From IMG/VR virus record IMGVR_UViG_3300009682_000003, positions 1 to 64,000 of that record: a DNA stretch of 64,000 bases, one strand, 5' to 3'. This document shows, piece by piece, positions 4,286-63,669 of the stretch. The position numbers were made by a program, and so were the translations under genes. The stretch's first letter is position 1. Every line of letters starts with the position of its first letter. This stretch comes from a virus. Its lineage: Duplodnaviria; Caudoviricetes. The notes under the pieces were generated by a model, which saw nothing but the letters and a program-made list of their open reading frames with translations, had not been told where the DNA came from and did no database searches.

Positions 4286-5194
4286 ATGGCGCGCAGCAAG
4301 GTGTTCGACCGCAGCAAGTGCAAGGAAAAGAAGCACCCCGAGGTGGAGCTGAAGGGAGAGCCCTTCCTGCCAGACTATGACGCGATCGTGATCAGCACGA
4401 GCGGCGGCAAGGACAGCGAGTGCGCCATGGATCTCGCGGTTGAGCGCGCGAAGCAGCAAGGCGTCCTTGAGCGGGTGCTCGCCGTGCACGCGATCTTGCC
4501 CGACGTCGAGTGGCCCGGCGTCGAGGAACTCGTCGAGAAGCAGGCGAGGTTCTTCGGCGTGCCGGTGGTGTTCGTTCAGAGCGACCAGAAGTGGAGGTCG
4601 TGGCTCGACTACGCGATCGAGCGCAAGCAGTGGCCCGGTTTCGGCACGCGCTACTGCACCAAGCAGTGGAAGTACACGCCGGTCAACACGCTGTTCACCG
4701 CGCTTCGGAGGAAGTTTCAGGCGGCAACGGGCGTCAAGCAAATCCGCATCCTGCACGTCATGGGCCTGCGCGCCGAGGAGAGCGACGAGCGCGAGTGCCT
4801 GTACTACTACTTCCACGTCACCGACCCGAGCCGAACGAACTCGGTCAAGCACACCGACACCTGGCTGCCGGTGTTCCGCTGGACGACGGCGCAGATCTGG
4901 GACCACATACACAAGCGCAAGCTGCCGTACCACCCCGTGTACGATCAGGGCATGGCGCGCCTGTCGTGCGTGTTCTGCCCCCTCGCAGGCAAGCAGGACA
5001 TAGTCACCGCGGCGGCGCTGAACCCCAAGGCCTTGCAGGTCTACGTGGACGCGGAGAAGAAGATCGGCAAGCCGATCAAGCCGAGGTTCTGGCTGCGCGA
5101 CGTGCAGAAGTCGCTTCGCGCCGGCAAGGTGCCCGTCGTCGAGAGCAGCTACGAAGAGCTGTACTGCTGGCAGTGCCCAGGCATGCTGGGGTAG
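4286..5194 (+). CDS. PAPS reductase family (PP-loop) protein, phage type
   Basis: VISTSGGKDS PP-loop, GLRAEES, WLPVFRWT, RLSCVFCP. Confidence 0.9.
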   Translation: MARSKVFDRSKCKEKKHPEVELKGEPFLPDYDAIVISTSGGKDSECAMDLAVERAKQQGVLERVLAVHAILPDVEWPGVEELVEKQARFFGVPVVFVQSDQKWRSWLDYAIERKQWPGFGTRYCTKQWKYTPVNTLFTALRRKFQAATGVKQIRILHVMGLRAEESDERECLYYYFHVTDPSRTNSVKHTDTWLPVFRWTTAQIWDHIHKRKLPYHPVYDQGMARLSCVFCPLAGKQDIVTAAALNPKALQVYVDAEKKIGKPIKPRFWLRDVQKSLRAGKVPVVESSYEELYCWQCPGMLG

Positions 5195-5886: not shown

Positions 5887-7137
5887 CTACCCCACGACCG
5901 CAAGGCGCCAGGCCTCGCCGTCGTGCGCGTACACCTCGGTGCCAGGCGCTACGCGGCCCAGTAGCCAAGCCTCCGAGGTGACCGAGCCTGGGTCGCCGTG
6001 CAGTATCACGCGCCCCGGAATGTCCAGGGGCTCGACCTCGACGTCCAGGCCAAGCTCCTCGACCCATTGCTGCACCGTGGGAACGACGATCGTGGAGCCG
6101 GGCAAGGAAACGGTCGATCCGCGCCAGTCGAGCTCCACCGTGCCGCGCGACCGCCGCAAGGCCTCGAACCCGTATCCCCGGTCCTGGTTGAGCCCGCCTC
6201 GATCAAACCTCGGCACGCCCGCGACTACGAGGCGCCGCCAGACGCGGGAGCCGGGCGCTACGGCCTGCGAGGCGAGGCTGCCTGGCGTGTCCGTCGCCGC
6301 GAAGATCTCGGAGCCCTCGACGAACGCCTGGGCGGGCTTCGCCATGGCGTGCAACGGGCCAGACTTATCGGGCCAAGGCAGGTACAGCTTGACCATGCCG
6401 GGCTTGCCGTTCGGAACGGGGCCTTCGAGCGCAAGCACAGCGCGGTCGTTGGCCTCCATCGGCGCCTCGATGGCCCAGGTGGTGGCGGGAATGCCCACGC
6501 GCGCCCCCGTCTCGACGTCGACCATGGCGCACGGCACGCCGATCGTGCACCGTGGCTCGTCCCTGGGGCCTGACGGCCTCCTAGCGGGCGCCTGGGCGGC
6601 TGGGGCGGCAGCGGGAGGCTTCCGGCCCTTGGCGGGCTTCCTGGGCCTGCTCGGGGGCGGTGGGGCCTGCTCCTCGGGCTCGTCCTCGGGTTCCTCGGGC
6701 TCGCCTGGCTCGGGTCCGACGATGGCCGCGTGCCCTGGCGCTGGTTTGGGCTTCGGCGGCTCCGGGGGCGGGTCGGCCTTGCACCCGGTCTTGCGCCAGT
6801 AGATGGGGGCCTGCCAGGTGTGCTCGACCTTGCCGGCGCGAGCGAGGTTCCAGATCGCCGTCTCGGGGTTCTTGCCTGCCGCGGTGTCGCCCTCGATGTT
6901 AGCGATTTCCACGGCGAGGCGGTGGAACGTCCTCGGGACGCAGTCGCTCAGCGCACGCAAGATCTCCTTTTCCCACTGCTCGACAGGCGATTTCGCAGCC
7001 GCTCGCCAGGCCGTCGCGCTCACCTTGCCGCGGCCCGTGCGCTCGGGGTCGAGCCGGGACCGGATCATGATCACGTACTGCGACACGCCGCTCAGGTCTG
7101 GCACTTCGCTCGACCACTCGACCTTGGGCTTGGCCAT
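5887..7137 (-). CDS. hypothetical protein with N-terminal winged-helix-like segment and Pro-rich linker
   Basis: EILRALSD...TFHRLAVE...AIWNLARAGKV; PEPPKPKP linker. Confidence 0.65.
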   Translation of the reverse strand: MAKPKVEWSSEVPDLSGVSQYVIMIRSRLDPERTGRGKVSATAWRAAAKSPVEQWEKEILRALSDCVPRTFHRLAVEIANIEGDTAAGKNPETAIWNLARAGKVEHTWQAPIYWRKTGCKADPPPEPPKPKPAPGHAAIVGPEPGEPEEPEDEPEEQAPPPPSRPRKPAKGRKPPAAAPAAQAPARRPSGPRDEPRCTIGVPCAMVDVETGARVGIPATTWAIEAPMEANDRAVLALEGPVPNGKPGMVKLYLPWPDKSGPLHAMAKPAQAFVEGSEIFAATDTPGSLASQAVAPGSRVWRRLVVAGVPRFDRGGLNQDRGYGFEALRRSRGTVELDWRGSTVSLPGSTIVVPTVQQWVEELGLDVEVEPLDIPGRVILHGDPGSVTSEAWLLGRVAPGTEVYAHDGEAWRLAVVG

Positions 7138-9550: not shown

Positions 9551-9762
9551 GGTCCGGTTCCTCCCTTGTGCATCATCGCCGCGCACGGGCGGCACAGTGT
9601 CAGCGTGAGGCCCGATTCGGGCCACTCGACGGTCGTGAAGTCGTCGCCCGCCAGCGCGCGAGCGTCCTCGGGCGTCTGCGCCATCGGGCCTCGCTGCCGG
9701 CACCCAGGCGCCTGGCACGTCACCGCGCAGGCCTGGACGGTTTCGACGTTGTGCTCAGCCAC
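9547..9762 (-). CDS. small CxxxxC hypothetical protein
   Basis: Coupled small ORF. Confidence 0.5.
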   Translation of the reverse strand: MAEHNVETVQACAVTCQAPGCRQRGPMAQTPEDARALAGDDFTTVEWPESGLTLTLCRPCAAMMHKGGTGP

Positions 9763-9991
9763 CGTTCTGCTCCTTCTTTGCGGCGCGCCGCACCCTGCGC
9801 GACACGTCGGCGTACACGTTCGCCGTCACGAGCGCCAGGGCCATGTGCTCTGGCGCCACAGCGTCTGCGCCCTCGCGCGTTGCCGCGCGCTCCGCTGCGG
9901 TGCGCAGGGCTTGCGTAGCCAGGTCGAGCCAGTGCTCGGCCACGGGCGTCCAGTTCCTACGATTGCGTTTCGTCTGGTTCTTCTTCGGCAT
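9755..9991 (-). CDS. hypothetical protein
   Basis: Coupled small ORF, basic N-terminus. Confidence 0.5.
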   Translation of the reverse strand: MPKKNQTKRNRRNWTPVAEHWLDLATQALRTAAERAATREGADAVAPEHMALALVTANVYADVSRRVRRAAKKEQNGG

Positions 9992-10023
9992 GTGTTTCCC
10001 CTTCTGGGCGCCATGGGCGCCCG

Positions 10024-10287
10024 CTATCGAACACCAGGCAGCGCACCTTGCGTCTTGCGGTGCCACCTGTAGACCGCCACGACGGCGCGCATGGGCACCC
10101 AGCGCGGCTGGGCCTCCTCGCCGTGGTGGGGCATCACTCGCACAGCGGCAGCCTTGCCGCCGCGCCTCCCTCCGCAGTACCTCCAGCGGTGGCCGTCCTG
10201 AAAATAGTGCACAACGTCGCCCTCCTCGGGCAGGTCGTGCACCAGGACGAAGACTCGGCCACGCGCCTTGATCTGCTCAGCGACCAC
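10024..10287 (-). CDS. hypothetical protein
   Basis: GTG start after AGGTGAG. Confidence 0.55.
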   Translation of the reverse strand: MVAEQIKARGRVFVLVHDLPEEGDVVHYFQDGHRWRYCGGRRGGKAAAVRVMPHHGEEAQPRWVPMRAVVAVYRWHRKTQGALPGVR

Positions 10288-10290
10288 GTC

Positions 10291-11454
10291 TCACCTTTCG
10301 TCCTCGCTCTCGCCCCCGTAGGCCAAGGGCTCGGTGAGCACCGTCGCGCGCATATCGATCCCGAGCTGCCGGTGCCTGACCGTCACACGCACCGCCCCGC
10401 GCCACACCGATTTGCCGGTTGGCGCGATGTCAGCGCGTCCGCACTCGCTCACCTCGATCTCGCCGCCGTCGTCCGCCAGAGCCGCCGCACGCATGGACGC
10501 TTGCCCCTCGACGAGCGCGTCGCGCACCGCGTATGCGTCGTCGCTCGGCACGCGCTCGGGCACCTCGAAATCGTAGGTGTCCACGTACGTCGCCCATTCG
10601 GGGCGCCAGTTCGGCAGCGCCTCCCGTGCGAGTCTCTGCGCCTCCTTGCCGAGCGCCTGGGTGAGGTAATCCGCCACCTCGTCGAGCGCACCGCTGCGCC
10701 CCTCCGCGGCAGCCCGCCGCATCCTCGCGGGCAGATCTGCCTGCTCGACGATCCACGCAAGCGCGTTGTCGATCCTGGCCTGCTCCTTTGCCTGCTCTAT
10801 CTCGCGGCGCGCGTCCTGCTTGCGCTTCGCCTTCTCGATCCGACGCGCAAGCGCTTCCTTGAAGGCCTGCGTGTCCTTTGCGCTTCCCAACACGTCGCGC
10901 CCACCGACAGACCAGACCTGGCGGGCGTTGGTGTTGAACCGCGCCATGTCCCCCGCGTCGTGGTCGTGCGGCACACTGGTTGCGACTCCGTCGATCGTGA
11001 CGACGGCGTCGTCGGGCGCCGCGAGCCACGCTGCGAGCCACGACGCCTCCCGCTTCGTCTGCTCGTCGATGAGCCGTTGCCGCTCGTTCTCCTCCTGCTC
11101 GATCCGCTGCGCGGCCAGCGCGAGCTGCTCGTCCACACGCACCGCCTTGGCCGCGGGAGCGATCGACAGTACCGCGCGGAGCTGTTGATTGACCTCCTTG
11201 TCTGCCTGATAGCTGGTCTTCGCGACCGTGCCGTCCGGGTTGATCACGCAGCGGGCTTGCGCCCACGCCTTGAGCGTGGCCACAGCATCGACGGCGATCG
11301 TCCTCTGAGCGATCGGCCCGTACTCCTCGATCCACTGCGCTCGCTCGACCATGTCCGCCGGCACCACACTGTCGGCTTCCACCAAGTACTCGACCTGCGC
11401 CAGCCGTTCCTGCGCCTCGTCCTTCTCGTCCCTGCACTCGATCTGCTCGTCCAT
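10291..11454 (-). CDS. hypothetical coiled-coil protein
   Basis: GGAGG RBS; E/Q/A/R-rich helical composition. Confidence 0.7.
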   Translation of the reverse strand: MDEQIECRDEKDEAQERLAQVEYLVEADSVVPADMVERAQWIEEYGPIAQRTIAVDAVATLKAWAQARCVINPDGTVAKTSYQADKEVNQQLRAVLSIAPAAKAVRVDEQLALAAQRIEQEENERQRLIDEQTKREASWLAAWLAAPDDAVVTIDGVATSVPHDHDAGDMARFNTNARQVWSVGGRDVLGSAKDTQAFKEALARRIEKAKRKQDARREIEQAKEQARIDNALAWIVEQADLPARMRRAAAEGRSGALDEVADYLTQALGKEAQRLAREALPNWRPEWATYVDTYDFEVPERVPSDDAYAVRDALVEGQASMRAAALADDGGEIEVSECGRADIAPTGKSVWRGAVRVTVRHRQLGIDMRATVLTEPLAYGGESEDER

Positions 11455-14547: not shown

Positions 14548-15471
14548 TCACAGCCCCGTGGCCTCGCGCACGGCGCGAACAACCCCGGCTGCGACCGGCG
14601 GGCACACCGCGTTGCCGATGCCCAGCACGGCGTCAGCACGGCTGCTGCGCGGCCACTGGTAGCTGTCGTCAAAGCCCATGGCCCGCGCGTACTCGCGGAT
14701 CGTCAGCGGGCGGTACTTCGAGCCCCGCACGACGGCCCACTGGTCCTTGGTCGTGATGGTGCGGATCGGCTCGTGCACCGGGACGCCGGGGTGACCCGTG
14801 ACGTGCTGCACCAGGCAGTCGCGGCCCGAGCGAGCCTGAGCGGACCTGATGCGAGCCTGCGCCCCGGGCGACGCCGCCGTGATGGGGCGCCAGCCGGGCG
14901 CCTTGGGGTCGAGGTGCGGCCAGAACGCCGGCTCGGGCACCTCGGGGTCCGCGAGGCGCAAGCGGCCAGCAGCGCTCCCCCTGAGCCCAACAATGAACAG
15001 GCGCGTTCGGCGCTGCGGCACGCCCCAGCGGCTCGCGGTCAGCAGGTGTTCCGTCAGCGTGTAGCCGAGGGCTGCGAGGGCCTGGCACCACACGTTGAAC
15101 AGGCGCCACTGCTTGAACGAGGGGACGTTCTCCACCACGAGGGCGGCGGGCTCGGTCGCGTCGGCGCAGTCCACCACGGCCCAGGCCGTGGAGCGTAGCT
15201 CGTCGTGGTAGCGCCTGCGCGCCGGCTGGCTCGCCGTCGAGTGTCCCTGGCAGGCCGGCGACGCCAGCAGCACGTCGAACTCGGGCAGCGAGCCCCAGTC
15301 GGCCTGGCGCACGTCCTGGCAGGCGTGCATCGTGTTCGGGTGGTTGGAGGCGTGGGCCTCGACAGCCAGCGGCCAGTGGTTCGCGGCCCAGAGCACCTGG
15401 GCTCCAGCGGCGAGCGCCCCCGAGGTGAACCCACCCCAGCCGGCGAACAAGTCGATACAACGAACGGTCAT
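14548..15471 (-). CDS. DNA (cytosine-5) methyltransferase
   Basis: DLFAGWGG, ASPACQGHS, VENV, GVPQRRTRLF, GNAVCPP. Confidence 0.93.
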   Translation of the reverse strand: MTVRCIDLFAGWGGFTSGALAAGAQVLWAANHWPLAVEAHASNHPNTMHACQDVRQADWGSLPEFDVLLASPACQGHSTASQPARRRYHDELRSTAWAVVDCADATEPAALVVENVPSFKQWRLFNVWCQALAALGYTLTEHLLTASRWGVPQRRTRLFIVGLRGSAAGRLRLADPEVPEPAFWPHLDPKAPGWRPITAASPGAQARIRSAQARSGRDCLVQHVTGHPGVPVHEPIRTITTKDQWAVVRGSKYRPLTIREYARAMGFDDSYQWPRSSRADAVLGIGNAVCPPVAAGVVRAVREATGL

Positions 15472-24270: not shown

Positions 24271-24537
24271 TCACTGATCGTCCGTGATGCCCCACTGGGC
24301 AAGCTCCTCCATCGCCCTGGCCACTTGCGTGGTGTTCAGGCCGATGGCCAACAGGTGCTCCCGCCACTGCTCCTCGGAAAGGCTGTCGACGTTCACGCCC
24401 GCCTTGTCGAGCTCCAGTGCCGTTTCCCGCACGCGAACCATCGCCTCGTCCTCGAGATCCTCTCCGTCAACCTGGTTCTCAAGCACGAGGTACTTGCCCA
24501 CGATCTGCTGCGCCTTGCGCGGGTCGTCTCGGTTCAC
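24271..24537 (-). CDS. hypothetical acidic protein
   Basis: Coupled ORF. Confidence 0.6.
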   Translation of the reverse strand: MNRDDPRKAQQIVGKYLVLENQVDGEDLEDEAMVRVRETALELDKAGVNVDSLSEEQWREHLLAIGLNTTQVARAMEELAQWGITDDQ

Positions 24538-24538
24538 G

Positions 24539-25768
24539 TCAATGCTCCTCGTAGGCGACCGTCAGGTCGGGCCGCGTCCAGCACGCTCGGCAGCCGTGTC
24601 CGACCGGCGAGCGTTCATCGTTCATGTTCCCGAAAGCGAAGCCGGGACCGCGGGCTCCAGAGCAGCAGCCGCCGACCCACTTGCCCGGCTGGCCCGCCTT
24701 GGGCTTGGCCGCGCCCCCCTCGTGGGGCGGCTTGTAGGCTGGGTACACCCACGTCGCGAGCTGCGGCGCAAGCTCTGGGGGCGCCGAGGCGGCGCTCGAC
24801 GAGTACCCGGCGTAGCCGAGGCTCGGCCCCATCTCGCGAAAGTGCATGGCGCTCGGCCTCACCACGAGGTTCGGGGGGATGCACCGCACGTCTTCGCTCG
24901 TCGGGCACGCCCCCCCTCCCCGCGGCACCCAGGTGCGCGTGGGCGCCCAGATCACCATGGGCGGCACCTCAACGGTGCGCGTGGCGACCGGCCCCGTGGT
25001 GCGCGTGACGATCGCCGGCTGGCTCAGGTTGCGCCCGATCTGGCACCACTCCTCGAAGTAGCGGCGGTTCAGGAAGTCCCCGCAGTCATGCAGCCGAAAG
25101 AAGTACGGGTCTTCGGTGAGCTGCACGTCGGTCAGCTTGCCCTGCTCGGTGAGCTTGGCGATGCGGCGGACGCTGTGCGCCTGCCGGTTGCGGATCGCCT
25201 CGGTGAACACCTCGGCCATGGCGCCTGGCTTCAGGCGCAGCATGTACCTGACGAACTGCCTGCGCACCTCCAGCGTGAGCGCGACGGTCGTGGTTGCGTA
25301 CTGCCCTTTGATGCCGTAGCAGCCGCTGCACACGTAGGTGGCGGGCTTGACTCCGATTGCGTGGGCCGCTGGCGAAAGCGGCATCGCGCGCCGCTCGTCC
25401 TCGCTCAGCATGGGGAAGCCGGGCACGCTCCCGTAGCACGAGCCGCCGAGCTTGGGAGGCCCCGCCGGCAGGTTGAACCCCCAGCACACCATCTTGCCTG
25501 CGCTGCCGAGCAGCTCGACGCTTGCCATGAAAACCTGCGGGTCGCCGGAAGCGTAGGACGACCTGGCGGGTGAGCCGATCGCCTCCCACAGCCCGTACAC
25601 GTCGCCTCGCGTGATGGGCCTCGCAAGCGGGATTTCTGGCACTCCGTTGACGATCTGCATCCTGGGCTTGCTCGGCAAGCAGGACTCGACGAGCTTGCGC
25701 ATGTGCGGCCTGATCGCGATTGCGTGCGGCTGGATCGTCTGCGCCGCGTTTTCGATGCGCGCCCCCAT
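24539..25768 (-). CDS. Gp88-like protein (Cys-rich, radical-SAM-related phage family)
   Basis: CSGCYGIKGQY, FRLHDCGDF, WAPTR, PPNLVVRPS, GCRACW. Confidence 0.75.
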   Translation of the reverse strand: MGARIENAAQTIQPHAIAIRPHMRKLVESCLPSKPRMQIVNGVPEIPLARPITRGDVYGLWEAIGSPARSSYASGDPQVFMASVELLGSAGKMVCWGFNLPAGPPKLGGSCYGSVPGFPMLSEDERRAMPLSPAAHAIGVKPATYVCSGCYGIKGQYATTTVALTLEVRRQFVRYMLRLKPGAMAEVFTEAIRNRQAHSVRRIAKLTEQGKLTDVQLTEDPYFFRLHDCGDFLNRRYFEEWCQIGRNLSQPAIVTRTTGPVATRTVEVPPMVIWAPTRTWVPRGGGACPTSEDVRCIPPNLVVRPSAMHFREMGPSLGYAGYSSSAASAPPELAPQLATWVYPAYKPPHEGGAAKPKAGQPGKWVGGCCSGARGPGFAFGNMNDERSPVGHGCRACWTRPDLTVAYEEH

Positions 25769-48487: not shown

Positions 48488-48628
48488 TTGACAGACGCAA
48501 TGCAACGGGTAGCATTACTTGCGCCCGTCGTCCACGGGCGAGCGAAGGATCAAGGCCCTCGGTTGTTCGACCTTGTCGAAAACCGGGTGTAGTACGCGCA
48601 GACAGCGCGCACACAACGCGCACACAAC
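48488..48628. promoter_or_regulatory. Divergent control region upstream of the recombinase
   Basis: TTGACA-N16-TAGCAT (48488-48515); inverted repeats 48522-48540 and 48567-48581; 11-bp tandem repeat 48607-48628. Confidence 0.55.
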
Positions 48629-48656
48629 ACGGGAACTACGGGGAAGGTCTGGGGTA

Positions 48657-49613
48657 ATGTCAGCAGAAATGTTGCCGGTTTGCGGGGACGGCTCGCGCGC
48701 TCTGCTTGAGCTGGCTCGCGCGCTCGCAAGCGAGGCCCGCGCTCCCAACACGCGGCGCTCCTACGACTCGGCGCTCCGCTGCTTCGCCTTGTTCTGCGAA
48801 CAGCACTCGTTGGTGCAAGAGCCGCAGCCGGCGCAGGTCTGCGCGTTCGTTGCTTGGCTTGCGGAACAAGGGCGATCGGTCGCGACAGTTGAGCGGGCGA
48901 TGGCGGCGCTCGCGCACGCAGCAACGCAACAAGGCCTTGCAGCGCCCGCGAGCCATCCAGCCGTGTCCGAGGTTCTGGAGGGCGTGCGGCGCGTCCTGGG
49001 GCGTGCTCAGGACCGCAAGGCGGCGGTCCTGGTCACGGACCTGCGGGCCATGAGCGAGGCGCTGGGCGAAGGCCTTGCGGCAACCAGGGACCGGGCGGTG
49101 CTCGTGCTGGGGTTCGCGGCGGCGCTGCGTCGCGCCGAGCTGGTCGCGCTCGACGTGGGCGACCTCCAGTTTGTCGAGCAGGGCGTGATCGTCACGCTGC
49201 GCCGCTCCAAGACCGACCAGCACGCAGAAGGCACGGTCAAGGCCGTCCCCCGGGGCTTGAACGCCCCGACCTGCGCTGTGCGGTGCGTCGAGGCCTGGCT
49301 GGGGGCAGCCCGGCTCGACGAAGGCCCCCTGTTCCGCCGCATCGGCGCGGGAGGCAAGGTGCTACGCCAGCGCATGAGCGACCGGGCCGTGGCTCGCCTG
49401 GTCAAGCGCGCCTGCGCGAACGTCGGGCTCGACCCGAAGCGCTACGCCGGCCACTCCCTGCGTGCCGGCCTGGCGACCGAGGCCGCACGCAGGGGCAAGA
49501 GCGACTGGTCAATCATGCGGCAGACCGGGCACACCAACCCGGCGACGCTCGCGAAGTACGTGAGGGAGGCAAGGCTGTGGGAGGACAACGCGGCAGACGA
49601 CCTGGGCCTGTGA
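48657..49613 (+). CDS. Tyrosine recombinase/integrase (Cre/XerD-like, with N-terminal SAM-like domain)
   Basis: RDRAVLVLGFAAALRRAEL, RRSKTDQ, GHSLRAG, MRQTGH, Y. Confidence 0.95.
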   Translation: MSAEMLPVCGDGSRALLELARALASEARAPNTRRSYDSALRCFALFCEQHSLVQEPQPAQVCAFVAWLAEQGRSVATVERAMAALAHAATQQGLAAPASHPAVSEVLEGVRRVLGRAQDRKAAVLVTDLRAMSEALGEGLAATRDRAVLVLGFAAALRRAELVALDVGDLQFVEQGVIVTLRRSKTDQHAEGTVKAVPRGLNAPTCAVRCVEAWLGAARLDEGPLFRRIGAGGKVLRQRMSDRAVARLVKRACANVGLDPKRYAGHSLRAGLATEAARRGKSDWSIMRQTGHTNPATLAKYVREARLWEDNAADDLGL

Positions 49614-53989: not shown

Positions 53990-54000
53990 GGCATCGACTC

Positions 54001-54486
54001 CTACGTGTACTCAATGAGGCCTGCGCGTTCCAACCGACGCAGCACGAGCGTCGTGTCGAAGCAGCTAAGCCCGGTTCGCTGGGCGATTGCGCCTTTCGAG
54101 GTCGCTCCCGCCCTGATCGCGTCGAGCACGGCCTCGTTCTCGTGGCGCGTGACCGCCATTTGCTGCCAGTGCGGCATCTTCGACCGCTCGGCCTGGGTAG
54201 GCCACTTGCGATCCTCGCGCAGCTCCCACACCTCCTCGACGTCCTCGAAGTAGCCGGGGTCTTCGGCTCTCGCTCCGAACTGAAACGTGAGCGGCACCAT
54301 GCGTCCGCGATGGGGCCACGCTTGCCCGGGGTACCACGCGCCGACCGTGCCATCGGCGGTGTCGTACCATACGACGACGAGCGCCTCAGAGCTTGGGTGC
54401 TCCCAGTATTTGCGCCCGCCGACAGCGCCGAGGTCGGCGCGCGATCGCGACTCGAAGTCGAGTAGCACCGGGGCGACGTGCGTCAT
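54001..54486 (-). pseudogene. Chimeric ORF: N-terminal remnant of a phage family-A DNA polymerase exonuclease fused to a winged-HTH fragment
   Basis: LLDFESRSRADLGAVGGRKYWEHPSSEAL stops matching after about 60 aa; C-terminal IAQRTGLS...LRRLERAGLIE. Confidence 0.55.
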
Positions 54487-55493
54487 GGCTGCGCCTCGGC
54501 AATGCGCGCACGCGCGATCGCTACGTACTCGGGGTTGAGCTCGGCGCCGATGAAATCGCGCCCCTGTTGCAGCGCGGCAAGCGCGGTAGTGCCTGCGCCG
54601 GTGAACGGGTCGAGCACCACGCCGCCGGATTTGCATCCGGCGCGCACGCACAGCGACGCGAGCGTGATCGGCATCATCGCGAAGTGGGCGCATCTGGATG
54701 GGCGCGGGTTGAAGTGCCAAACGGAGCGGAGATTGGCGCCCGCGTCGGGGTCAGACTTGAAACCAACGCCGACCACGTGCAGCGACCCGTCGTTGCGCCC
54801 GCTGCTACGCGAATAGTCTTGCGCGCGCCCCTCGTTTTTTGCTGTATCGTATGCACGCGCTTGCGCGGGATGCAAACGCGCTTCCCGCACCGCATCCACG
54901 TCGTACCAGTACCGCGGCGATTTCGTCATTAGGAACACGTATTCATGCGCCTTCGTCGGGCGATCGCGCACGCTCTCAGGCATGCACGATCCGGCGCGCG
55001 TATCGCCGCTAAAGCCCTTTGCCCAAATGATATCCGCCCGCAGGTACCACCCAGCGGATTGGAGCGCGAACGCCACGCGCCATGGGATGCCTACGAGGTC
55101 TTTGGGTTTGAGATCGCCGAAGTCCTTGAACGCGGATAGCACTGTTCGACTCGCGGAAGGGTGCAGCGATCGCGGCCCAAGCACGCCTCTTCGGCCGTCC
55201 CTACTTTGCTGCGGTCCGCTTACTTTCAGCCCGCTAGTTGATGCGTAGCTATCCCCCAGATTCAGCCAAAGCGTGCCGTCGTCGGCGAGCACGCGATGCA
55301 CTTCGGAGAATACCGCTACGAGCCGCGCAACGTACTCGTCCGGCGTAGTCTCGATCCCGATTTGCCCCGCGACGCCGTAGTCGCGTAGGCCCCAATAGGG
55401 TGGTGACGTGACGCAGCATGCGATCGATTCGTCCGGCAGCGCGCGCAGCACGTCGAGTGCATCGCCCTGCACGATCAACGCTTCGGCTGTCAT
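54483..55493 (-). CDS. DNA N4-cytosine/N6-adenine methyltransferase (beta class)
   Basis: VTSPPYWGLRDY, LWLNLGDSY, WAK, HEYVF, HFA, VLDPFTGAGTT. Confidence 0.95.
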   Translation of the reverse strand: MTAEALIVQGDALDVLRALPDESIACCVTSPPYWGLRDYGVAGQIGIETTPDEYVARLVAVFSEVHRVLADDGTLWLNLGDSYASTSGLKVSGPQQSRDGRRGVLGPRSLHPSASRTVLSAFKDFGDLKPKDLVGIPWRVAFALQSAGWYLRADIIWAKGFSGDTRAGSCMPESVRDRPTKAHEYVFLMTKSPRYWYDVDAVREARLHPAQARAYDTAKNEGRAQDYSRSSGRNDGSLHVVGVGFKSDPDAGANLRSVWHFNPRPSRCAHFAMMPITLASLCVRAGCKSGGVVLDPFTGAGTTALAALQQGRDFIGAELNPEYVAIARARIAEAQP

Positions 55494-55551
55494 AGCGCAC
55501 CCCCGCGCAGCGCGCCCGCTAACAGTCTCGCGCACACGACCGCTAGCGCCA

Positions 55552-55884
55552 TCACGCGCGCTCCGTCGTGAGCGAGTATTGCCCGACGGCGGGCCCCCTT
55601 AGCGGCATCACGGTCGCGATCATGTCCGGCGCGCTCGAGCTAGTAACGATCGCGGGGTCTTCGGCGTCGATCCCGATGTTCAGGTCGAGCCAGTCGCGCG
55701 CCGCCGTGATCTCCGCTCCGTGCCCCTTGCCGTAGTTGCGCTTGCTGAACCGCCCGCTCCAACCGAACGTGCGGGCGATCGAGGGGAAGTCGTGGTCCTG
55801 TTGAACCAGGAAACTTCGACCGTCCTCGTTGCGCACGACGTACGATCCGTAGGGTCCGTCTTCGAGCGTGATCGTGTCGCCCAT
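55552..55884 (-). CDS. Phage hypothetical protein with a probably foreign C-terminus
   Basis: AARDWLDLNIGIDAEDP then AIVTSSSAPDMIATVMPLR (resembles a sliding-clamp C-terminus). Confidence 0.55.
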   Translation of the reverse strand: MGDTITLEDGPYGSYVVRNEDGRSFLVQQDHDFPSIARTFGWSGRFSKRNYGKGHGAEITAARDWLDLNIGIDAEDPAIVTSSSAPDMIATVMPLRGPAVGQYSLTTERA

Positions 55885-56006
55885 GGCGCAGATTGTGCCC
55901 GCGTGTCGCCCCGGAAGGCAAGCGTCGTGGTACATTCGGCGCCATGCGTGGAGAGCACGAGGCCAGGGCGCGCGAAGCAGGCCCTGTTTGTGGCGAAGAC
56001 GGGTGC

Positions 56007-56189
56007 ATGGTCGCGCAGTGCATCCTCGCGATCCGCAACCTGGCGGACGAGGTCGCCAGGCTAAACCAAATCGTCGCGAGGCTTCAGCCGAGCCGCCTGA
56101 ACGCGATCCGCGAGGCGAGCTGGGCCACCGCTGGCGCCATGGTGACGCTTGCCGCCGCGACGTGGTGGTATCTCCAGGTCGTGCGCTAG
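56007..56189 (+). CDS. small coiled-coil/TM hypothetical protein
   Basis: LADEVARLNQIVARL...AMVTLAAATWWYL; start uncertain. Confidence 0.35.
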   Translation: MVAQCILAIRNLADEVARLNQIVARLQPSRLNAIREASWATAGAMVTLAAATWWYLQVVR

Positions 56190-57148
56190 CCCGACACGCA
56201 GCCGTCTTGGATCGCCTCGTCGTCGAACAGGTCGCAGAATGCGGGAGCGTCCGACTCTTCGAGGAACCCGGCGTACTTGCTCCCTTTGCCAGCGGCGTCA
56301 GCCTTGCGCACGCGCTTGATCCACTCGCTCATGCTCCCAGGCCTGCACCGCGTAGGCTTGCGCCAGAGGCCGTCAATGCTGCGTGTCTTCGCCGGGTCGG
56401 CGTTGCGCTCCATGGCCACGATGCGGTCGGCCAGGTCGGGGTAGTTGCGAACCAGCCAGGTGATCTCGTGGGGCTTGGAGGCGGGGCAGTAGAAGCAGGC
56501 GCTCTTGACGGGGACGCGCAAGCCGCTGCTCGCGATCTCGGCCTTGCACTGCTCGCGGTCCCAGCCCCACTCGCGAAGCGGATACCAGTACACGTACCGA
56601 TCGTCGTCTGCGATCTTGCTTCGCCTTGCGTCCGCCGGCCCCGCGTCGTATCCGATCACTTTGATGCACCTACCGCCGGCATCCCAGGTTTCGAGCGCAG
56701 GCCTCCATCCGGCGACGTAGTCGTTCTGCGGGTCGCGCTTCCACTTGAGCGAGCACCCCTTGCGACCGTAAGCCAGGCTCGGCAGGTCGCGCTGCGCCAG
56801 GCACTGGCCTTCCAGCGACGTGTAGGGCCGGTTGGCGAACTGCCCACGGCCAGGCCCGGGGTAGCAAACGGTCGTGGGCAGGGGAAAGCCTACCGCCTTG
56901 CAGAACCTGCCGATCTCGTTCGCGTAGGCGTAGGTGTCAGGCTTTTCGTCGCCCGTGTCCGCAAACAGGATCATGTCGGGCCGGATGCCCATGCGCGCGA
57001 ACTCGACGAGCACCGCCGTGCTGTCCACGCCCATGCCGTACGCCACGATGAGGGGGACCGGGAAGTAGTGCTCCTTGAGCGCGACTTCGCTCGGGTACGG
57101 GGGCTTGCACGAGATCACTCGTGCGTCTCGCTGGGCTCGCGTTGCCAT
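56186..57148 (-). CDS. Second PP-loop (adenine nucleotide alpha-hydrolase/PAPS-reductase-like) protein
   Basis: VAYGMGVDSTA, FADTGDE, CSLKWK, IGYDAG, YPLREWGW, KSACFYCP. Confidence 0.85.
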   Translation of the reverse strand: MATRAQRDARVISCKPPYPSEVALKEHYFPVPLIVAYGMGVDSTAVLVEFARMGIRPDMILFADTGDEKPDTYAYANEIGRFCKAVGFPLPTTVCYPGPGRGQFANRPYTSLEGQCLAQRDLPSLAYGRKGCSLKWKRDPQNDYVAGWRPALETWDAGGRCIKVIGYDAGPADARRSKIADDDRYVYWYPLREWGWDREQCKAEIASSGLRVPVKSACFYCPASKPHEITWLVRNYPDLADRIVAMERNADPAKTRSIDGLWRKPTRCRPGSMSEWIKRVRKADAAGKGSKYAGFLEESDAPAFCDLFDDEAIQDGCVSG

Positions 57149-57150
57149 GC

Positions 57151-57483
57151 TCAGGGCAGCTTGTAGACCTTGACGCACCCGGCAAGGCCTTCGCGACCGG
57201 CCTTGCGAGCGCCGGCAGCGACGCCCTCGTCGTATGCTTCCCAGACGGCGTCGGGATCGCGCGAGCGGTTGAAGTCAGCCGCCGTGAACTCGAACGGCGA
57301 GAACTGCCTGAAGTGCTCGCTTTCGACGCTGCCGACCTCGCCCACGAACCAGTCGAGGAACTCGCCCTCGCTGCCGACCTGGACGTCGCCCTCGTACTCG
57401 TTGAACAGGTCGACAAAGTTTTCCTGGCCGATCGCGTGCCCTGTGTCTTGGCCCATGTCGCGGGCCTCTCGCTTGCTCGCCAT
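57151..57483 (-). CDS. hypothetical acidic protein
   Basis: Coupled ORF. Confidence 0.6.
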   Translation of the reverse strand: MASKREARDMGQDTGHAIGQENFVDLFNEYEGDVQVGSEGEFLDWFVGEVGSVESEHFRQFSPFEFTAADFNRSRDPDAVWEAYDEGVAAGARKAGREGLAGCVKVYKLP

Positions 57484-57560
57484 GCCGGAAGCGTACACCC
57501 CTCACGCCGGGCTTGGCTAGCAGCTCGACGCCCCGCCCGCCGCCGCGGTAGGCTCGGACA

Positions 57561-57929
57561 ATGACGAGCGAACGAGACGCGCTCCAAGGACTGGTCGACC
57601 ACCTCGCGGAGGAGATCTCCACGCCGGCTCACCGCGACCCTTGGACCGAGGTGCAAACCTGGGTCACCCTGCTGCTGCCTGCCCTCACGGACGCGGGCCT
57701 GCTCTGGGAGTACACGGGCGCGTCCAGCGAGGGCGTCATGCTCGACGACGGCGAGACGCTGGGCGGGTTCTGGTTGCTCGATCCCGCAAGCGGGCTCTTC
57801 GTCGGGCTCGAGGACGCCGACGAGGTGCAGGGGCCGTGGATCGCGAAGCTGCGCGAGCAGATCAACGGAGCATCGCGAGCCCAGCTCCGCTTGTACGCTG
57901 CCTGGGCTCACGCGGCGATGCACCGCTGA
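57561..57929 (+). CDS. hypothetical protein
   Basis: First gene of a plus-strand island. Confidence 0.55.
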   Translation: MTSERDALQGLVDHLAEEISTPAHRDPWTEVQTWVTLLLPALTDAGLLWEYTGASSEGVMLDDGETLGGFWLLDPASGLFVGLEDADEVQGPWIAKLREQINGASRAQLRLYAAWAHAAMHR

Positions 57930-57945
57930 CGGCAGAGCCCGGGGC

Positions 57946-58704
57946 GTGTACCATCGCGCCATTGCCGGGTTCGCGTTCTTGCTCACCGTCAACACCCCGG
58001 CGTGGCTCGGCACCGCGCGCGTGCCCCTTTTCATATCGCACAACCGCCTTGTTGCGATCCGCAGCCTCCCTCGCGCCGCCGCGCCCTGGGCGCTGGACAG
58101 CGGCGCCTACACCCAGGTGACCAGCTACGGCGGGTTTTCCACGAGCGCCCGGGGCTATGCCCGGTGCACCAGGCGCTACCGCGACGAGGTGGGGCGCATG
58201 GTCTGGGCGTCATGCCAGGACTGGATGACCGAGCCCGAGGCGCTGCGCGCCACCGGGATGACGATCGAGCGTCACCAGCAGCTCACGGTAGCGAGCTTCT
58301 TGGAGCTTTCCTCGATTGCCCCTGACCTCCCCTGGCTCCCCGTGCTCCAGGGGCAGACCATCGCGGACTACGAACGGTGCCTGCGGCTGTTCGAGGGCGC
58401 GGGCGTCGACCTGCGCCGTTTCCCCTCGGTGGGGCTCGGCTCCGTATGCCGGCGGCAGGGCACGATCGAGGTCGAGCGCATCGTGCGCGAGCTGGCGGGC
58501 TACGGGCTGCGCCTGCACGCCTTCGGCGCCAAGAAGACCGGGCTGCGGCGGTACGTGGACGCGGTCGTGAGCAGCGACTCGAACGCCTGGAGCGCTCGCG
58601 CCAGGTGGGCTGCCGCGGACGGCACCGCCTTGCCGAGCGACCGCAACAGCCTCGCCTACGCACTGCGGTGGCGCGAGGAGCTGCTCGTGGAGCTTGGGCT
58701 GTGA
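57946..58704 (+). CDS. tRNA-guanine transglycosylase-like (DpdA-like) TIM-barrel protein
   Basis: WALDSGAY, QDWMTEP, PVLQG, VGLGSVCRR, LHAFG, SDSNAW. Confidence 0.75.
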   Translation: MYHRAIAGFAFLLTVNTPAWLGTARVPLFISHNRLVAIRSLPRAAAPWALDSGAYTQVTSYGGFSTSARGYARCTRRYRDEVGRMVWASCQDWMTEPEALRATGMTIERHQQLTVASFLELSSIAPDLPWLPVLQGQTIADYERCLRLFEGAGVDLRRFPSVGLGSVCRRQGTIEVERIVRELAGYGLRLHAFGAKKTGLRRYVDAVVSSDSNAWSARARWAAADGTALPSDRNSLAYALRWREELLVELGL

Positions 58705-62645: not shown

Positions 62646-62971
62646 CTTTCACCTCCGTCTGCGTTCGGCTCGAACCTCGGATCGCCTCCCTCGGGCCATG
62701 CGTAGTCGAAAAGCGCAAGCTGCGCCTGGTCGAGCGTGTCGAAGGCCTGGTGCCCACCGCGCCAGCGCGGGAGCATCGACACGGGCATGCACTCGGGCCT
62801 GGGCGGTCGCAGCCATGCGTAGTACAGCCCGTCGCGCAGCTCGACGCCGAACCGGGCGTACCAGACCTTGATCGACAGCACGGTGCGACCGTCGAACTCG
62901 TACCACTCCCACTTGCGCAGAACCCACCTCGTGCGCCACTTCTCGCGGCGCTTGGCCTGGTCGGCTCCCAT
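62642..62971 (-). CDS. hypothetical Trp-rich protein
   Basis: GTGATG overlap. Confidence 0.55.
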   Translation of the reverse strand: MGADQAKRREKWRTRWVLRKWEWYEFDGRTVLSIKVWYARFGVELRDGLYYAWLRPPRPECMPVSMLPRWRGGHQAFDTLDQAQLALFDYAWPEGGDPRFEPNADGGER

Positions 62972-63555
62972 CACTCCTTCTCCGCTTCCAGGCGCTCCCA
63001 GCGCCCGCCACGGCCCGGCCCGAACAGGAACCAGGCGTAGTCGCAGGCATCGGTGGCCTTCTTGCCGCGCTTGGCTGGGCAAATGAACGAGGGCCTGTTC
63101 GCGAACAGGAACAGGTCGGCCTTGTGCTCTGCCCAGAAGGCGCGTCGCTTCTTGGTCGCCCCGAACCCGATGCGGGCGAGGAACGCGACCGTGCCCCCCT
63201 CGTCCACCTCGATGAGCGCCCGCCTCGCCACTTGCTCGACCAGGCCGAACGGCGGGTTGGTGATGATGAGCCCGGCCTTCGGCCACGGCACGCGAAGGGC
63301 GTTGCCGTGCACGCAATCGAAGCCCCGCGCTCGGCACGCCTCGGCGCGCCTCTTCTGAATCTCGATCCCGAGCAGGTCGCTGGCCTGCCACGGGAACACG
63401 CCGCGCAGCTCGTGCAGGATGTTGCCCTTGCCGGCGCACGGGTCGAGCACGACGTCGTGGCACGGCAGCTCGTGGAGGATGGCGCGAACGCACCACCCCG
63501 CGGTGTCGTAGGCGTCGAAGCGGCGCCTCTTGGTTCCCCTGCCCGTGGCGCTCAT
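62971..63555 (-). CDS. Small amino-type (NPPF) DNA methyltransferase
   Basis: DAYDT, VLDPCAGKGNI, GIEI, IITNPPF. Confidence 0.88.
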   Translation of the reverse strand: MSATGRGTKRRRFDAYDTAGWCVRAILHELPCHDVVLDPCAGKGNILHELRGVFPWQASDLLGIEIQKRRAEACRARGFDCVHGNALRVPWPKAGLIITNPPFGLVEQVARRALIEVDEGGTVAFLARIGFGATKKRRAFWAEHKADLFLFANRPSFICPAKRGKKATDACDYAWFLFGPGRGGRWERLEAEKE

Positions 63556-63669
63556 TGTGCACCTCGCCGCGGGCGTGCTATGGTCTGGACTCGTCTGGTT
63601 CGCATGCTGCTTTCACCTCCGTGTGCGACTGAGGCCCCGGCACTTCCCCTTTGCCGGGGCTTCGGCTTT

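Follow-up and report, generated by a model that had tools for sequence, protein, structure and literature searches.

A divergent predicted stand-alone DpdA of the Orion type and a nearby PP-loop gene in a temperate, high-GC virus

Introduction

The phages Rosebush, CAjan and 9g encode DpdA1, a protein presumed to exchange guanine in DNA for a 7-deazaguanine and thereby to protect the DNA against restriction. These phages carry folE, queD, queE and queC beside dpdA, and about 30% of their G is modified. Rosebush has the full pathway to 7-cyano-7-deazaguanine (preQ0), and its DNA contains validated dPreQ0, the corresponding deoxynucleoside, which replaces 28% of G (PMC6884629). The largest group of phages in the same survey (Hutinet 2019), comprising 76 phages, encodes DpdA only, and host or exogenous preQ0 was proposed as the source of the base (PMC6884629). 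Here, we describe a DpdA-family gene (dpdA) and a neighboring PP-loop gene in a virus of the Caudoviricetes, IMGVR_UViG_3300009682_000003. The stretch analyzed, hereafter the window, is the first 64 kilobases (kb) of a 72,723-bp IMG/VR record that is 96% complete by CheckV and has about 67% GC. A preliminary description of this DNA, made from the letters alone, had proposed a candidate novel DNA hypermodification. That proposal overstates the evidence, as phages with only DpdA are already known and the link between DpdA and the PP-loop gene is rare.

Two further groups of described proteins provide points of comparison. The bacterial DpdA (bDpdA) of Salmonella Montevideo (7ui4; PMC10164549) is a 413-amino-acid (aa) protein with a large Ins8 domain and a CXCX2CX22H zinc site, and it needs the DpdB ATPase. 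The PP-loop ATP pyrophosphatase superfamily includes CysH, DndC, TtuA/NcsA and the proteins of PF06508 (QueC, Gat-QueC and Cap9), among which are PP-loop enzymes known to work with TGT-like (tRNA-guanine transglycosylase-like) proteins. Phage homologs of 3'-phosphoadenosine-5'-phosphosulfate (PAPS) reductase have been treated previously (PMC11437467).

A divergent DpdA of the Orion type

The gene at the center of this study is the following:

57946-58704, + strand: guanine transglycosylase of the DpdA family (PF23859), stand-alone and of the Orion type; 252 aa when read from the GTG at 57946

The product matches the Pfam family PF23859 over profile positions 5-252 of 291 (E 3.4e-63, 213.8 bits against a cut-off of 27), scores 213.2 bits on the same profile in a six-frame search, and matches phrog_1279 with an E of 1.8e-67. 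The TGT-like motifs reported in the preliminary description are all present in this one protein, where they read ALDSG, QDWM, PVLQG, GLGS, LHAFG and SDSNAW. At E <= 1e-10, the subfamily comprises 2187 representatives of clusters at 50% identity. Its closest cultured members are found in about 400 mycobacteriophages, at about 43% identity, where they are annotated as queuine tRNA-ribosyltransferase or DpdA-like. One of these, gp20 of Mycobacterium phage Orion, shares 41% identity with the window protein across its full length (E 5e-67). The name DUF7221 occurred in no paper in our literature search.

Because sequence-profile searches of the PDB with the DpdA and PP-loop families gave nothing usable, we predicted the folds and searched with the models. 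The AlphaFold2 (AF2) model of the window DpdA, built from 40 homologs, is a TGT-like TIM-barrel with a predicted local distance difference test score (pLDDT) of 92. Among solved structures, its top match is the bacterial DpdA 7ui4 (E 1.4e-6, query-normalized template modeling score TMq 0.57), followed by more than 200 TGT and ArcTGT chains from bacterial, archaeal and human enzymes. Its best match among viral models is a protein of Mycobacterium phage Bella96 (template modeling score, TM, 0.89). Across 201 homologs, D51 (in ALDSG), D92 (in QDWM), D211 (in SDSNAW), Q135-G136 and C168 are invariant. Motif order and fold together suggest that D51, D92 and D211 are equivalent to Asp95, Asp130 and Asp256 of bDpdA, and mutating the corresponding Asp residues of the bacterial enzyme abolishes guanine exchange (PMC10164549).

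The window protein thus has the TIM-barrel fold of TGT and the trio of active-site Asp residues in common with bDpdA, whereas the two share only 14% identity and are undetectable to one another by sequence profile, and the 252-aa window protein lacks the Ins8-bearing length of the bacterial enzyme as well as its zinc ligands. Neither DpdB nor DpdC was noted among the open reading frames (ORFs) of the virus that were scanned, although no dedicated search was run. The likeness to Orion gp20 and to other phages with only DpdA (PMC6884629) is closer: about 250 aa, a stand-alone gene and no phage-encoded que genes. Relative to gp20, the window protein lacks a C-terminal Cys/His motif, and it comes from a temperate, high-GC virus whose large ORFs match no terminase, portal or capsid family. 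With a GC content at third codon positions (GC3) of 0.91, dpdA is a long-resident, virus-adapted gene. Judged from these sequence comparisons, the window protein is a divergent member of the Orion-type stand-alone DpdA subfamily. Its fold, its residues and the transporter link described below suggest that it may modify DNA, the presumed reaction being the same as that of the DpdA1 proteins of Rosebush, CAjan and 9g.

Supply of the 7-deazaguanine precursor

The preliminary description had recognized no que genes in the window, and this holds for the whole 72,723-bp record, in which the families for QueC (PF06508), PTPS/QueD (PF01242), GTP cyclohydrolase I (FolE, PF01227) and radical SAM proteins (PF04055) give 0 matches; QueF, ArcS and DpdL/M/N had no searches of their own. 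The window virus therefore differs from Rosebush, CAjan and 9g in lacking the genes that accompany their dpdA. To place this absence in context, we surveyed 50 whole viral records carrying this DpdA subfamily together with 80 DpdA loci. QueC was present in 1 of the 50 records; absence of que genes is normal for the subfamily and does not signal a new pathway.

A Vut_1/YhhQ-type preQ0 transporter was encoded in 18 of the same 50 records. In 28 of the 80 loci (within L098-L165; for example L111:9340-10017), the gene immediately upstream of dpdA, on the same strand, encodes this transporter, and these 28 loci represent 20 of the 52 DpdA lineages defined at 70% identity, dispersed over the DpdA tree. 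As gene-order evidence, this neighborhood gives good support to the use of a salvaged precursor by the subfamily. In the survey of Hutinet 2019, YhhQ was uncorrelated with any phage group (PMC6884629). The scavenging of host preQ0 or 7-aminomethyl-7-deazaguanine (preQ1), which the preliminary description offered as one of two options, is the best-supported reading in light of the que-less norm of the subfamily and its transporter; as an idea it is not new, being the published default for phages of this kind.

A PAPS-reductase-like PP-loop protein near dpdA

The virus encodes two PP-loop proteins, which we refer to as type 2 and type 1:

56186-57178, - strand: type-2 PAPS/APS-reductase-like (APS, adenosine-5'-phosphosulfate) PP-loop ATP pyrophosphatase; ORF of 330 aa, 310 aa in public gene calls
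4286-5194, + strand: type-1 PAPS-reductase/DndC-like PP-loop protein with a canonical SGGKDS loop and an internal CVFC

Both had been noticed in the preliminary description, which placed the type-2 protein, with a CxxC tail, two genes from dpdA. The type-2 protein has a variant GMGVDST loop, an internal CFYC and a Cys-bearing C-terminal tail, and two small ORFs separate its gene from dpdA; the other is a canonical SGGKDS protein of the PAPS_reduct family. In addition to the variant loop and the internal CFYC, the type-2 protein has an ADTGxE-type motif. Its family comprises 1742 homologs of about 260-310 aa, found in prophages of many phyla, and has four invariant cysteines (C126, C142, C228 and C231), a CxxC among them. 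Many members end in a Cys-bearing tail and there is no ECGLH motif. The window protein matches phrog_424 'PAPS reductase' (E 1.7e-24) and falls below the cut-off of the Pfam family PAPS_reduct (PF01507), with 17.5 bits against 22.5 over the N-terminal 49 residues only; it is a divergent PAPS-reductase relative that stands outside the family by Pfam's own rule. NCBIfam and the ESM Atlas yielded nothing more than 'PAPS reductase-like'.

The AF2 model of the type-2 protein (pLDDT 86) was compared with solved structures using VIA-align, in which PAPS reductase scored highest (Z 11.9), followed by APS reductases (Z 10-10.6), YcfA (Z 9.9), NcsA and TtuA (Z 9.3-9.6) and Cap9 (Z 9.1). QueC (3bl5) scored 7.3, lower than many unrelated members of the superfamily. 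A QueC identity was considered and rejected on this comparison and on the lack of a PF06508 match at E <= 0.01; no match to that family was found elsewhere in the virus either, which sets it apart from systems built on QueC, Gat-QueC or Cap9, with which it shares only the superfamily. With CysH, DndC and TtuA/NcsA, the type-2 protein has the fold in common, and its CxxC-containing set of cysteines recalls the 4Fe-4S (iron-sulfur) cluster ligands of APS reductases; it differs from them in its GMGVDST loop and in its setting, which is that of phage and prophage DNA modification and not of sulfate assimilation. The cysteine layout resembles that of iron-sulfur APS reductases and sulfur transferases. 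The protein probably binds an iron-sulfur cluster and has a mobile Cys tail, and its chemistry would most likely be an ATP-dependent transfer of sulfur or an amide onto a nucleic acid or nucleotide.

The preliminary description had proposed an analysis of the neighborhoods of the PP-loop genes, and its outcome speaks against a regular partnership with DpdA. Within 10 kb of the PP-loop gene, DpdA occurs in 1 of 80 viral loci and in 8 of 80 bacterial loci (L176-L255), all eight from Sphingomonadaceae. Viewed from the other side, the PP-loop family is found in 1 of the 50 DpdA-bearing viral records, with distant PAPS-like matches in 3 more, and an ORF matching the type-2 profile lies within 10 kb in 3 of the 80 DpdA loci, with a type-1 protein in three others. 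The nearest homolog of the window's PP-loop protein (57% identity) lies two genes from a DpdA (46% identity) in a sister virus, L005-7. That virus shares several genes with the window virus and its DpdA is sister to the window's (Shimodaira-Hasegawa approximate likelihood ratio test, SH-aLRT, 88), for which reason we treat both as a single lineage. The PP-loop gene and dpdA are divergent in the window and convergent in L005-7, with different genes between them. On the DpdA tree, a quick IQ-TREE analysis with SH-aLRT support only, the DpdAs linked to PAPS-like genes lie scattered, with an equally low number of changes reached in 32 of 500 shuffles. No paper linking DpdA and PAPS reductase in phages was found in a literature search. 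The PP-loop gene is a separate mobile phage unit with no demonstrated link to DpdA.

Type-1 partners and DNA-modification islands

The type-1 protein matches the PF01507 profile over positions 2-174 of 175 (E 8.6e-15, 55.6 bits against 22.5) and has weak NCBIfam matches to cysH and DndC. It is 25% identical (E 4e-15) to a protein encoded directly upstream of the type-2 gene in bacterial loci, an arrangement seen in 20 of the 80 (for example L197:4845-6038, with type 2 following). Among the 80 viral loci, the two types lie within 10 kb of one another in 7. The window virus has one gene of each type, distant on the linear map. Type-2 paralogs can also share a contig: L008, a 50-kb viral contig, has two at 6001-6900 and 9578-10525, 2.7 kb apart.

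Other neighbors of type-2 genes in the bacterial loci include a GHKL-type ATPase (22/80) and Mom (15/80), and DUF5983 and C5 methyltransferases recur; viral loci add glycosyltransferases and a 2-oxoglutarate (2OG) oxygenase. In a Sphingomonas prophage (L241:8283-15974), a GHKL-type ATPase, a type-2 PP-loop protein, DpdA, a large C5 methyltransferase and a Mom-family protein are all encoded on one strand, making this region a dense DNA-modification island. We read the type-2 gene as part of a gene pool that assorts into phage DNA-modification islands, where DpdA is found at times without being an obligate partner.

A more specific proposal is that type 1 and type 2 form a two-component phage enzyme that makes or derivatizes a guanine analog, which DpdA then inserts in the islands where they meet (the window virus, L005-7, L011, L090, L252 and L241). 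We regard this as quite improbable. If true, the product of the pair would be a DNA modification outside the eight known 7-deazaguanines, and it could explain why phages with an Orion-type DpdA test negative for those.

Weighing the explanations

With a probability of roughly 0.6, we favor the reading that the window virus has an Orion-type stand-alone DpdA that uses a host-derived or taken-up 7-deazaguanine, and that the PP-loop gene is a separate unit. In this mechanism, DpdA would remove guanine from double-stranded DNA by a TGT-like double displacement and would insert a 7-deazaguanine base, preQ0 or preQ1. As the virus cannot make the base, it would come from the host queuosine pathway or from uptake. 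DNA so modified would gain partial protection against restriction. The type-2 PP-loop gene would move among phages and prophages inside DNA-modification islands, with a second, canonical PAPS-like protein as its commonest partner.

Several observations weigh against this reading. The subfamily has a C-terminal Cys/His motif (C/H..H..C/E-x-N-C) that 193 of 201 relatives keep, the sister protein of L005 among them, and the window DpdA has none of its Cys/His ligands, reading GTALPSDRNS at that place (window positions 58600-58680, residues about 222-236). At 9 of the 83 conserved columns it also differs from the consensus, the median being 3. Rosebush DpdA shows no BLASTP similarity to it. No YhhQ was found in the window virus, which would thus depend on its host's own precursor pool. 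The one tested phage with this type of DpdA, Orion, contained no dPreQ0, dADG (2'-deoxy-7-amido-7-deazaguanosine), dG+ (2'-deoxyarchaeosine), dPreQ1 or dQ (2'-deoxyqueuosine) in its DNA, each 7-deazaguanine standing at less than 6 per million (PMC6884629), and our literature search returned no report of activity for the subfamily. The authors ascribed the Orion result to M. smegmatis being unable to synthesize preQ0 (PMC6884629). Because Orion DNA had no 7-deazaguanine, activity would depend on precursor supplied by the host. Finally, a minority of islands (L011, L090, L252, L241 and the 8 of 80 bacterial loci) repeatedly bring DpdA and PAPS-like genes side by side.

The losses in the window protein raise the alternative that this DpdA is inactive, decaying, or engaged in a role other than bulk DNA modification, which we consider unlikely. 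It would account for the disappearance of all four Cys/His positions, which among full-length relatives is seen in just one more protein (P0236), for a long terminal branch (0.78 in the IQ-TREE analysis), for the altered conserved columns, by which the protein ranks about 5th to 7th of 189, and for the unmodified DNA of Orion. The start codon points the same way: the position at 57961-57963 reads ATT in this record and ATG in six other contigs, from which a 247-aa product would begin, with an in-frame GTG at 57946, five codons upstream of the ATT. Against decay, at least six other contigs of about 74-75 kb, drawn from different samples, have the identical open frame, and in each of them it starts with ATG. 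These six are identical across the PP-loop gene, both small ORFs and dpdA, the start-codon base excepted, which made it impossible to estimate the ratio of nonsynonymous to synonymous substitution (dN/dS) for the module. The catalytic and substrate-pocket residues are all kept, the changes at conserved columns are mainly conservative (F to Y, E to Q, L to V, W to F), the gene has the GC3 of a resident, and the AF2 model is confident except in the loop that lost the motif. The motif itself parallels the structural zinc site found in TGT and bDpdA and is an accessory feature, not a catalytic one.

The other alternatives give the PP-loop proteins a part in the reaction or take DNA out of it. In the first, one or both of the PAPS-like enzymes would make or derivatize the base used by DpdA, for example through an ATP-dependent thiolation or amidation of guanine or a deazaguanine, to give a new DNA modification. 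The proximity of PP-loop gene and dpdA is kept in the sister lineage L005-7; DpdA, type 1 and type 2 occur together in L011 and L252; PAPS-like ORFs follow DpdA in L090 and L135; Sphingomonas prophages carry PP-loop, DpdA, C5 methyltransferase and Mom genes, in that order, on one strand; 8 of 80 bacterial PP-loop loci have DpdA within 10 kb; and among known PP-loop enzymes, QueC and Cap9 have deazaguanines as substrates and YcfA, a structural match of the type-2 model (Z 9.9), has guanine. The link is nonetheless rare and confined to particular lineages, as the counts of 1 in 50 records and 1 in 80 viral loci and the restriction of the bacterial cases to Sphingomonadaceae indicate, and the PAPS-linked DpdAs are scattered on the tree. 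The two genes sit in separate, oppositely oriented units without a QueC signature, and the PP-loop family is found equally often beside Mom, methyltransferases, glycosyltransferases and a 2OG oxygenase where there is no DpdA. We therefore hold this alternative to be distinctly unlikely, and the suggestion in the preliminary description that the PP-loop enzymes make or modify a different base found little support, given the rare co-occurrence, the opposite orientations and a likeness to PAPS/APS reductases and not to QueC. Drawing as it does on a minority of island architectures, the idea that PP-loop enzymes make a new base is improbable. A target other than DNA appears very improbable. The substrate of the TGT-like protein would then be tRNA, as for TGT, or a protein, as for the TGT-like Cap10, which works with the QueC-like Cap9 in the deazaguanylation of type IV cyclic-oligonucleotide-based anti-phage signaling systems (CBASS). 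Joint action of TGT-like and PP-loop proteins on a protein substrate has a precedent (bioRxiv 10.1101/2025.04.06.647259), and Cap9 is among the structural matches of the type-2 protein. The latter does not belong to the QueC family, however, no CD-NTase or CBASS protein turned up in the ORFs scanned, although no CD-NTase family search was made, and the window DpdA is a minimal 250-aa barrel that lacks tRNA-binding extensions and matches the DpdA family of Pfam and not that of TGT.

Other genes of the virus

The virus is temperate and of high GC, and an integrase is present. Samples in which it occurs include JGI 3300009674, 3300028638 and 3300010345. The genes around dpdA and elsewhere in the window that bear on its biology are as follows:

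57151-57498, - strand: small ORF of 101-115 aa, no family, upstream of the PP-loop gene on the same strand
57561-57929, + strand: orf122, 122 aa, no family, ending 16 nucleotides upstream of dpdA on the same strand
54483-55535, - strand: N6/N4 DNA methyltransferase in a variable island (PF01555, E 1.1e-43)
14548-15471, - strand: C5 cytosine DNA methyltransferase (PF00145, E 1.9e-46; TIGR00675 dcm, E 7.7e-41)
62971-63612, - strand: third methyltransferase-like gene (phrog_799 DNA methyltransferase, E 4.5e-34)
48513-49613, + strand: tyrosine integrase (PF00589, E 6.3e-16)

Neither of the two small ORFs between the PP-loop gene and dpdA matches a family in Pfam, PHROGs or NCBIfam. The first, a gene of 101 aa in the annotation of the other contigs, has no homolog among about 250 loci; orf122 has a single one, at 53% identity, in L008, where it directly follows the second of the type-2 paralogs. 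By this comparison there is no conserved small partner gene, the small neighbors having no homologs in the roughly 250 loci except for orf122 in L008.

The three methyltransferases of the preliminary description are borne out as a C5 enzyme, an N6/N4 enzyme and the phrog_799 match. The N6/N4 gene has a GC3 of 0.74, compared with about 0.85-0.9 in neighboring genes. Its island (window about 54000-55900) is present in contigs L170, L173 and L175 and not in L171, L172 and L174, in which different genes adjoin at that place. RadC, an exonuclease and a DnaB-like helicase are also encoded.

The virion module is presumed to occupy 18699-44330, where the terminase, portal, capsid and tail families of PHROGs and Pfam find no counterpart among the large ORFs; the region has a weak tail-fiber match and nothing else. 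A Gp88-like protein had been suggested in the preliminary description, and the ORF in question (24271-24561) has no match in Pfam, PHROGs or NCBIfam. A scan of 55.5-60 kb for promoters and terminators gave no signal exceeding that of shuffled sequences. No tRNA genes were found, leaving no clue from that source to the host or the attachment site. No test identified the host, for which the preliminary description had invoked Myxococcota and their restriction systems; the relatives of the PP-loop protein span many phyla and those of DpdA are mostly actinomycete.

Significance

Taken alone, the locus is of little weight, as it adds one virus to the large class of viruses that have only DpdA. The wider subfamily is of more consequence. 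As a consistent partner, the YhhQ-type transporter supports salvage as a general strategy, and for the roughly 2000 representatives of the subfamily DNA modification is a prediction, the one phage tested being negative. The PAPS-reductase-like phage proteins, which recur in DNA-modification islands and often in tandem, give the search for their substrate a definite place to begin.

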